Assembly (NCBI GenBank): GCA_964016885.1
Contig: OZ024748.1
Location: 38,192,001 to 38,256,000, forward strand
Source of the DNA: Eledone cirrhosa
Lineage: Eukaryota
DNA: 64,000 bases
Direction: 5' to 3'
Positions 11,819 through 12,678 of the stretch are shown here, one piece after another. The position numbers and the translations under genes are program-made. Within the stretch, counting starts at the first letter, position 1. Each line of letters opens with the position of its first letter. The notes below the pieces were generated by a model. The model was not told the DNA's origin. It made no database searches and saw nothing but the letters and a program-made list of their open reading frames with translations.

Positions 11819-12678
11819 TATGTACACGTACATACATATATGTATACAGACGTACAGTAGTATGTATATATATATATACATACATGCACACATATATATA
11901 TGTACGTATGGATTCACCGAGCATTTATTATAATGCTCGGTGTGTTTGTAAACAAACATCCCGTATTAATGCGTAGTGTCTAGCAACCATTGTTGCTCGT
12001 TTGTTCAACACCGACAAAGGAACGCTGTACTAGTTTCAAGCTTATTAGCTATCGTCAGCAACGTATACCTTCCTGCCAGATTGTTGAACGTATATACTTA
12101 CCTTATGCATATTAACGGCTGAGTAGCCCAATTTGCATATCGAGTGGGTTAATCGGCCGGGTGCACCGAAAACGATAAACGGAAAAAATAAAACGAAATT
12201 TCATTTCCCACTCTTAGTACGGCTGTTACTTAAATATAAGTATGTACACGTACATACATATATGTATACAGACGTACAGTAGTATGTATATATATATATA
12301 CATACATGCAGACATATATATATATGTACGTATGGGTTCACCGAACATTTATTATAATGCTCGGTTTGTTTGTAAACAAACATCCCGTATTAAGCCGTAG
12401 TGTCTAGCAACCATCGTTGCTCGTTTGTTCAACACTGTCAAAGGAACGCTGTACTAGTTTCAAGCTTAATACGGGATGTTTGTTTACAAACACACCGAGC
12501 ATTATAATAACTGTTCGGTGAACCCATACGTACATATATATATGTGTGCATGTATGTATATATATATACATACTACTGTACGTCTGTATACATATATGTA
12601 TGTACGTATACATACTTATATTTAAGTAACAGCCGTACTAAGAGTGGGAAATGAAACTTCGTTTCATTTTTTCCGTTT
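11819..12678 (-). mobile_element. non-coding retrozyme-like element, family B (422-bp unit x~1.5 plus inverted 5' segment)
   Basis: Direct repeat at 11821/12243. 12464-12678 is inverted relative to 12178-12395. Hammerhead at 12022-12064. (TA)n flanks. Confidence 0.8.
12022..12064 (-). ncRNA. minimal type-I hammerhead ribozyme (GUA cleavage triplet)
   Basis: Minus strand acgttg-CTGACGA-t agct aata agct t-GAAA-CTAG-TA-cagcgt, with palindromic helix III ACTAGT. Confidence 0.85.

Follow-up and report, generated by a model that had tools for sequence, protein, structure and literature searches.

Two fixed 3′ ends and multi-unit arms in a hammerhead-bearing repeat family of Eledone cirrhosa point to Penelope-type copying of a probably circular RNA

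A 64,000-nucleotide stretch of the Eledone cirrhosa genome (the window) carries three copies of a short non-coding unit, two of them with a hammerhead ribozyme motif, which raises the question of how such an element moves and, in particular, whether its template is an RNA circle produced by the ribozyme and reverse transcribed by the enzyme of a Penelope-like element (PLE) primed at genomic (TA)n. This had been the original prediction, made from three copies of a 422–442 bp unit, and all three were found at the positions given there with the features described for them. The unit, here family B, is 420–445 nt long (typically 420–440 nt) and is numbered from u1, the first base 3′ of the predicted cleavage site. 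The window copies are composed as follows.

11819..12471, minus strand: copy 1, long arm of lineage B1; 657 nt, or 1.55 units of 422–424 nt; 3′ end at fixed site B (near u220) against (TA)n 11785–11818
12022..12064, minus strand: copy 1, type I hammerhead; core 12058–12028; predicted cleavage GUA/C at 12028/12027; stem I ACGUUG/CAGCGU
12446..12470, minus strand: copy 1, upstream hammerhead, 3′ half only, at the 5′-truncated start of the arm; the two cleavage sites lie 424 nt apart
12477..12680, plus strand: copy 1, inverted arm; 204 nt; 3′ end at site A near u286, tail included, against (TA)n 12680–12793
48549..48637, minus strand: copy 2, inverted arm; 90 nt; 3′ end at site A near u288 against (TA)n
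about 48617..49127, plus strand: copy 2, long arm of lineage B2; ~510 nt, 1.1–1.2 units of 442 nt; ends at site B near u220 against (TA)n
48694..48751, plus strand: copy 2, internal ~56-nt 'tail' from site B (short hairpin loop) to site A (ccattta at 48751)
48846..48935, plus strand: copy 2, type I hammerhead with extended stem I; core 48877–48907; predicted cleavage GUA/C at 48907/48908; U10.1–U11.1; palindromic helix III ACUAGU
58691..58854, minus strand: copy 3, single 5′-truncated arm with no ribozyme; 165 nt; ends at site B near u219 in a long (TA)n tract

The two long copies had been said to reach about 1.5 and 1.1 times unit length, in agreement with the values measured here. The common 3′ end at (TA)n also stands, at about 220 nt after the cleavage site rather than the ~200 nt proposed. 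The inverted 5′ segments are equally real; what had been overlooked is that they have a fixed end of their own, site A (ccRttta/TATA), ~56 nt further 3′. In copy 2 the junction between the arms falls inside a TA-rich hairpin, making its position ambiguous. Each copy has at most one complete ribozyme, and none of the three has two. Elsewhere in the window, a different repeat directly adjoins copy 3 (about 58855–58990, minus strand) and contains, at 58942, a motif resembling a hammerhead whose stem II is long, an arrangement also present in L255, and LINE-type fragments (RT, AP endonuclease, zf-RVT) occupy 9311–11447, 29296–33600 and 35491–38438. An Rfam scan of the whole window returned predominantly sub-threshold miRNA matches on TA repeats.

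The predicted ribozyme is a type I hammerhead consisting of a 6-bp stem I with a long extension, CUGACGA, U10.1–U11.1, a 4-bp stem II with loop AAUA, GAAA, helix III ACUAGU and GUA/C. As proposed, the core is the same in copies 1 and 2 (CUGACGA-UAGCUAAUAAGCUU-GAAACUAGUA/C), a U–U sits at 10.1–11.1, and stem I carries a double change (acgTtg/caGcgt versus acgGtg/caTcgt). The double change does keep pairing, but it lost the special status attached to it, being a wobble flip with a third state, A–U: among 322 ribozymes in 190 loci (a few of them overlapping) the pair was U–G in 171, G–U in 97 and A–U in 33, and it was paired in 310. The genome-wide count suggested by the original prediction places the window copies in a very large family, with 9,768 exact matches to the 32-nt hammerhead core in the 3.0-Gb genome and 0 in the reversed control. 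Since, in addition, the unit folds with z = −5.86 relative to shuffles, the hammerhead is not a chance occurrence. A looser pattern of the same geometry, which includes sister families, gave 41,212 matches against 18 in the control.

Across ten hand-picked representatives of family B and its sisters D and E, 93.9% of hammerhead cells were paired and 11 of 23 pairs had changed on both sides; 0 of 500 shuffles matched this covariation and slid controls paired at 29–49%, figures that count as support and not as a probability because the structure was drawn from family B and the sequences are related. Outside the ribozyme, two-sided change was found in 5 of 84 consensus pairs. By this comparison the predicted type I hammerhead covaries across the sister families, and the motif is likely to be self-cleaving. 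The helix III palindrome is retained in family B and its sisters as ACUAGU or ACAUGU, a pattern consistent with cleavage as a dimer (in the accessible part of PMC4209133); the self-duplex of ACUAGU has an energy of −6.8 kcal/mol, that of helix III in the monomer not being computable with its 2-nt loop. The accessible text of two papers describes U–U at 10.1–11.1 as tolerated and known (PMC3088659) and places it at the base of stem II in the axolotl retrozyme HHR_Amex2 (PMC7229834). The only Rfam match of the family B ribozyme was to HH9, and it was weak (16 bits against a gathering threshold of 52). A circle of the unit is predicted to have 67–71% of its bases paired.

Family B was then characterized from 206 mapped loci (191 distinct), of which 120 were ranked by similarity to the window queries and 86 (79 distinct) were taken in order of position on contig C1. 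The copies belong to several lineages and include tandem arrays of 2 to >20 units, which have at least two complete ribozymes. The 3′ ends of arms lie at site B (u~220–231) or site A (u~277–288), about 56 nt apart and nearly always against (TA)n; outer ends are mostly (TA)n, with a few at (TC)n or other sequence. In contigs of run X1 (of unrecorded kind, possibly the same sample and silent on expression), 60 loose ends leave at the position equivalent to 48751 (site A) into (TA)n.

The two ends are combined almost strictly within insertions. Among the 79 position-ordered loci there were 42 head-to-head pairs; 28 could be classified, as 27 A+B and 1 A+A, and in 14 an arm ended elsewhere. The similarity-ranked set yielded 67 pairs, with 57 classifiable (52 A+B, 4 A+A, 1 B+B). 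Against 0.5, the ceiling under independent choice of ends, the excess of A+B has a binomial p of 1e-7 in the position-ordered set and 3e-11 in the ranked set. Single arms ended at A in 20 cases, at B in 13 and elsewhere in 10. The overlap at arm–arm junctions is mostly 0–5 nt. Snap-back copying of one arm from the other was excluded because in several pairs (e.g. L156, L154) neither arm is contained in the other.

This arrangement is that of PLE insertions. Coding PLEs are described, in the available portions of the reports, as having an optional 30–40-nt tail at one end together with an inverted truncated copy (PMC8557442, PMC3846280), and in the Anolis element the tail spans two internal RT start sites while both target strands are cut and extended (PMC11167929, accessible part). 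The family B tail of ~56 nt lies beyond the published range. A coding PLE family of the E. cirrhosa genome has the same two ends at (TA)n, about 35–40 nt apart, and a CX2-5CxxC linker of Neptune/Nematis type, an assignment made by linker and not by tree; PLEs with this linker retain open frames of 844–1096 residues. The PLE-type mobilization at (TA)n put forward originally is therefore well supported by the two fixed ends and the inverted arms, the former not having been seen at the time, and family B is almost certainly a PLE-mobilized non-coding element.

No helper was found among 50 of 10,597 candidate GIY-YIG loci (30 + 20 examined), whose UTRs have no homology to family B. A 14-nt pyrimidine-rich likeness to the inner end of one coding PLE family was set aside as weak, since in family B it sits at the opposite end. 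Several broken PLE copies lie in the window itself. A coding fragment at 55099–56685 (plus strand), with an inverted partner at about 54290–55060, contains RT and GIY-YIG joined by a CX2-5CxxC linker and shares 59% identity with an open frame of 937 residues in L237. Further broken copies are at 20931–21635 (plus strand) and 49431–51800 (plus strand), the latter with a hammerhead of its own at about 51743–51790 that recurs in L216, L239, L252 and L255.

Could family B itself be the pseudo-LTR (pLTR) of a coding PLE, seen as truncated copies? Its tail, inversions and (TA)n bias are traits of PLE ends, and in Xenopus retrozymes are related to pLTRs (accessible part of bioRxiv 10.64898/2026.07.22.740005). 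Against this, in the 191 distinct loci long arms re-enter the unit and at no position is there a pile-up of exits into other sequence. The absent UTR homology at the 50 GIY-YIG loci also speaks against it, the three B copies nearby there being separate repeats. No RT + GIY-YIG reading frame contiguous with family B was present among the mapped loci, which leaves room for a rare coding version. The unit closes on itself and has no exit into an ORF, the outcome that the original prediction had required; closure together with arms ending at (TA)n likewise gives no ORF/LTR/PBS/PPT organization (PBS and PPT judged from closure alone). The pLTR explanation is thus largely refuted for the bulk of copies, and as a general account we regard it as extremely unlikely.

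Arms longer than one unit, which had so far been seen only in the window, are common: in the position-ordered set they make up 51 of 106 arms and occur at 46 of 73 loci. Every sufficiently long arm in the 191 distinct loci wraps round the unit. The 5′ ends are scattered evenly, with a flat 5′-end hazard that ignores the cleavage site: passes ending within 13 nt around it number 4/288, and 2/81 where the loci had been retrieved with sequence lying 3′ of the ribozyme. One fragment that was left out for having neither an A nor a B end (L057) begins at u1. As arms run through the cleavage site without a stop, the template was continuous across it.

Sequence variants were used to follow the template within insertions. 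The passes or arms of an insertion agreed in lineage at 16 of 18 tandem loci and at 19 of 23 inverted ones, compared with 22% of random pairs. Marker 252, present in 24% of 127 passes, was shared by all passes at each of the 11 multi-pass loci where it occurs (11/11), and locus-private alleles were common to the passes or arms of one insertion more often than in controls (6/142 versus 10/3,989; 4/121 versus 3/3,166). One template lineage was used per insertion, and part of the concordance may come from lineages having been active at different times. Lineage chimeras occurred at 4 of 67 tandem and 5 of 52 inverted loci. L362 appears to switch lineage near 1008, close to the cleavage site, and L002 and L192 switch near site B; template switching, mixed ligation and re-insertion are alternative origins for these three.

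The youngest lineage, with 619 marker matches, gives the clearest record. The sample comprised all 17 loci among the first 100 matches, on C1, plus L323, L325, L371 and L372. Each of the 17 has an arm longer than one unit (17/17), reaching about 20 units, and all 14 classifiable pairs are A+B (14/14). Across 19 insertions only 98 substitutions from the reference unit were present in 54,117 nt. Two private substitutions of L346 occur in every covering pass of both arms, and the one of them that was searched had 8 matches in the assembly, all at L346. Unit identity could be aided by assembly polishing; private alleles would not arise in this way. The presence of these substitutions throughout both arms of L346 favours rolling-circle reverse transcription. 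Another variant, 328T, is carried by a 14+7-unit insertion on C4, a 7-unit insertion and a 1.7-unit copy on C28 with two ribozymes, and the assembly contains no linear source longer than the 14-unit arm. The 1.7-unit copy is a candidate for a source shorter than the 14+7-unit insertion derived from it. One locus of the lineage (L355/L356) has a mirrored, indel-rich end that is possibly an assembly fault.

These lengths bear on whether insertions were initially of about one unit and became multimeric later, by unequal crossing-over or by re-insertion at their own TA-rich end. Arms longer than two units are rare among the older copies (3 of 106), so that long young arms and short older ones run opposite to the trend expected from later growth as DNA. 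The longest arms belong to the youngest and nearly mutation-free lineage, where often both arms are multimeric and have arbitrary 5′ ends and intact A/B ends; moreover, the commonest form is a partial arm of 1.1–1.9 units that is concordant in lineage. DNA growth would account for the chimeras joined near site B (L002, L192), for a private variant of L319 that is confined to one arm, and for the periodicity of old arrays. The old long arrays L322, L324, L327 and L151, and L317/L318 of a sister family, have higher-order periods of 2–8 units; they were therefore amplified at the DNA level, and long arrays of this age were dropped as evidence of rolling-circle copying. Those of family B with >20 units at L322/L327 (G000:C1:97.0 Mb) and L324 (G000:C12:20.4 Mb) have turned into satellites with higher-order repeats, units of L322/L327 diverging by about 8%. 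As an explanation of the insertions in general, growth at the DNA level is very unlikely.

A more serious alternative retains the two-primer PLE insertion and takes the template to be an uncleaved linear multimer, transcribed from a homogeneous tandem locus, with the ribozyme slow, protein-dependent or used at another step. Homogeneous arrays of 7–21 units do exist. Weak cleavage of the monomer is predicted from the U–U at 10.1–11.1 and a 2-bp helix III, and, as far as the accessible text goes, uncleaved RNA is the dominant substrate of the Anolis PLE in vitro (PMC11167929) and 8 of 9 Xenopus retrozyme dimers were uncleaved (bioRxiv 10.64898/2026.07.22.740005). The variant of L319 occurs in 6 of 7 full units of its arm and nowhere else in the assembly, and in L354, L320 and L326 variants appear in every other unit. 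Neither pattern follows from one monomer circle; they call for an additional template, a dimer circle or events at the DNA level, and a heterogeneous multimer would fit the variants of L319, L354 and L320. Set against a linear multimer are the L346 variant, for which no other locus was found by the search, the lack of any assembly array exceeding the 14-unit 328T arm, the absence of a shared 5′ stop marking a transcript start, and ribozyme pairing that has been kept across families. Furthermore, because a new mutation arises in one unit, a uniform multimer would itself need amplification of a single unit at some step. A homogeneous source array may be missing from the assembly. On balance, a linear template is unlikely, and a circular one is favoured.

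Taken together, the end structure, arm lengths and marker sharing are best read as the products of a circular monomer made by the hammerhead and copied by a PLE protein that would nick both strands of (TA)n, giving one cDNA from A and one from B; we put the probability of this reading at about 0.68. A locus of dimer or greater length would be transcribed, and the hammerheads would cut the transcript, probably as a dimer through the ACUAGU palindrome, after which the monomer would be ligated into a circle. The PLE protein (reverse transcriptase + endonuclease) would then nick both strands of (TA)n, with priming at site A from one nick and at site B from the other. Each cDNA would travel the circle for as little as part of one turn or as many as about 20 turns, and the two cDNA ends would finally be joined head-to-head with an overlap of 0–5 nt. 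Some old arrays were later amplified as DNA. We lean, by a small degree, towards a broader interpretation, in which rolling-circle reverse transcription of a circular RNA made by the ribozyme has left its record in the genome as the young insertions, a Penelope enzyme obligatorily primes the two target strands at two different fixed sites of the RNA, giving one arm with the tail and one lacking it, and the host harbours a radiation of such circles (>40,000 hammerheads sharing one geometry, in four or more families), one lineage of which was active recently.

Sister families were encountered in the same searches. Family C (L256:7700-8060, minus strand; L257–L286), with 1,873 candidates and a ~440-nt unit, has A–A at 10.1–11.1, a longer helix III, and two fixed ends about 35 nt apart. 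Its inverted pairs lie at (TA)n, and it has both a double hairpin and an upstream motif in common with family B. Family E (L289–L292, L299, L304, L307, L312; G000:C1:5738326-5752444) has a 466-nt unit, G10.1–C11.1, GUU/C and the same two-end design; one of its arrays, 31 units long, has higher-order periodicity and is paired with an inverted arm. A single copy was seen of family D (L277:1876-2140), with a B-like frame, a C-like stem II and the palindrome ACAUGU. In run X6 (organism C), five contigs of depth 2–8, one with an inverted junction, are 85–95% alike to family B; these low-depth contigs suggest that family B occurs under another organism label.

Retrozymes as a class, and their link to PLEs, are already in print. 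In the literature within reach (few subscription papers; Repbase and Dfam lying outside its scope) we found no description of family B, nor, among the same papers, of retrozymes with tails or inverted arms or of rolling-circle copying documented by markers. As judged from its sequence, family B appears to work like a metazoan non-LTR retrozyme and a non-autonomous PLE, and has the testable features of both. Compared with the accessible descriptions of non-LTR retrozymes of coral, mussel and axolotl (Cervera and de la Pena 2020, PMC7229834; PMC7761336; bioRxiv 10.64898/2026.07.22.740005), it shares a non-coding unit of a few hundred nt with <50% GC, a canonical type I hammerhead with a short palindromic helix III, thousands of copies, tandem forms and a highly paired predicted circle. 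The unit, at 420–500 nt, is longer than the 170–400 nt given in PMC7229834 and falls within the 51–972 range of bioRxiv 10.64898/2026.07.22.740005. Unlike the retrozymes in these descriptions, family B is mostly scattered as insertions of two arms placed head-to-head, which have fixed ends and a tail; circles have been demonstrated for the former, whereas family B is known here from the genome.

With the GIY-YIG PLEs, as described in the available parts of the reports on Poseidon of Anolis (PMC11167929), Neptune/Naiad (PMC8557442) and Adineta Penelope (PMC3846280), family B has in common a pair of neighbouring RT start sites, a tail that may be present at one end, an inverted 5′-truncated head-to-head arm, partial tandems, (TA)n targets and a hammerhead upstream of the start sites. 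It differs from these coding elements in having no ORF, a tail of about 56 nt instead of 30–40 nt, and a hammerhead that is complete and canonical where theirs has the minimal PLE form. Its use of one start site per arm is near-strict, whereas the in vitro results in the accessible part of PMC11167929 give no start-site difference between the two strands for the Anolis element. Non-autonomous Chlamys elements such as MRC1 (PMC8557442, accessible part) are likewise non-coding dependants of PLEs, with pLTRs and multicopy head-to-tail insertions; their 3′ end resembles that of an autonomous family and they generally have no canonical hammerhead, whereas family B has a central hammerhead and no matching autonomous 3′ end among the 50 loci.

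The available text of the retrozyme review finds no motif in the repeats that would indicate a helper (PMC7761336). With the in vitro PLE system (PMC11167929, accessible part) and the long open PLE frames of this genome, the helper, the choice between circular and linear templates and the unexplained origin of PLE tails and inversions become directly testable. That animal retrozymes spread as circles copied by PLE enzymes has been proposed since 2020, with support, in the accessible literature, from co-occurrence, a shared ribozyme type and pLTR similarity. Family B insertions bear the PLE enzyme's own signature, and its young lineage adds private markers that recur in each turn of the two arms; as read from the genome, they would provide unusually direct evidence on how such an element moves.
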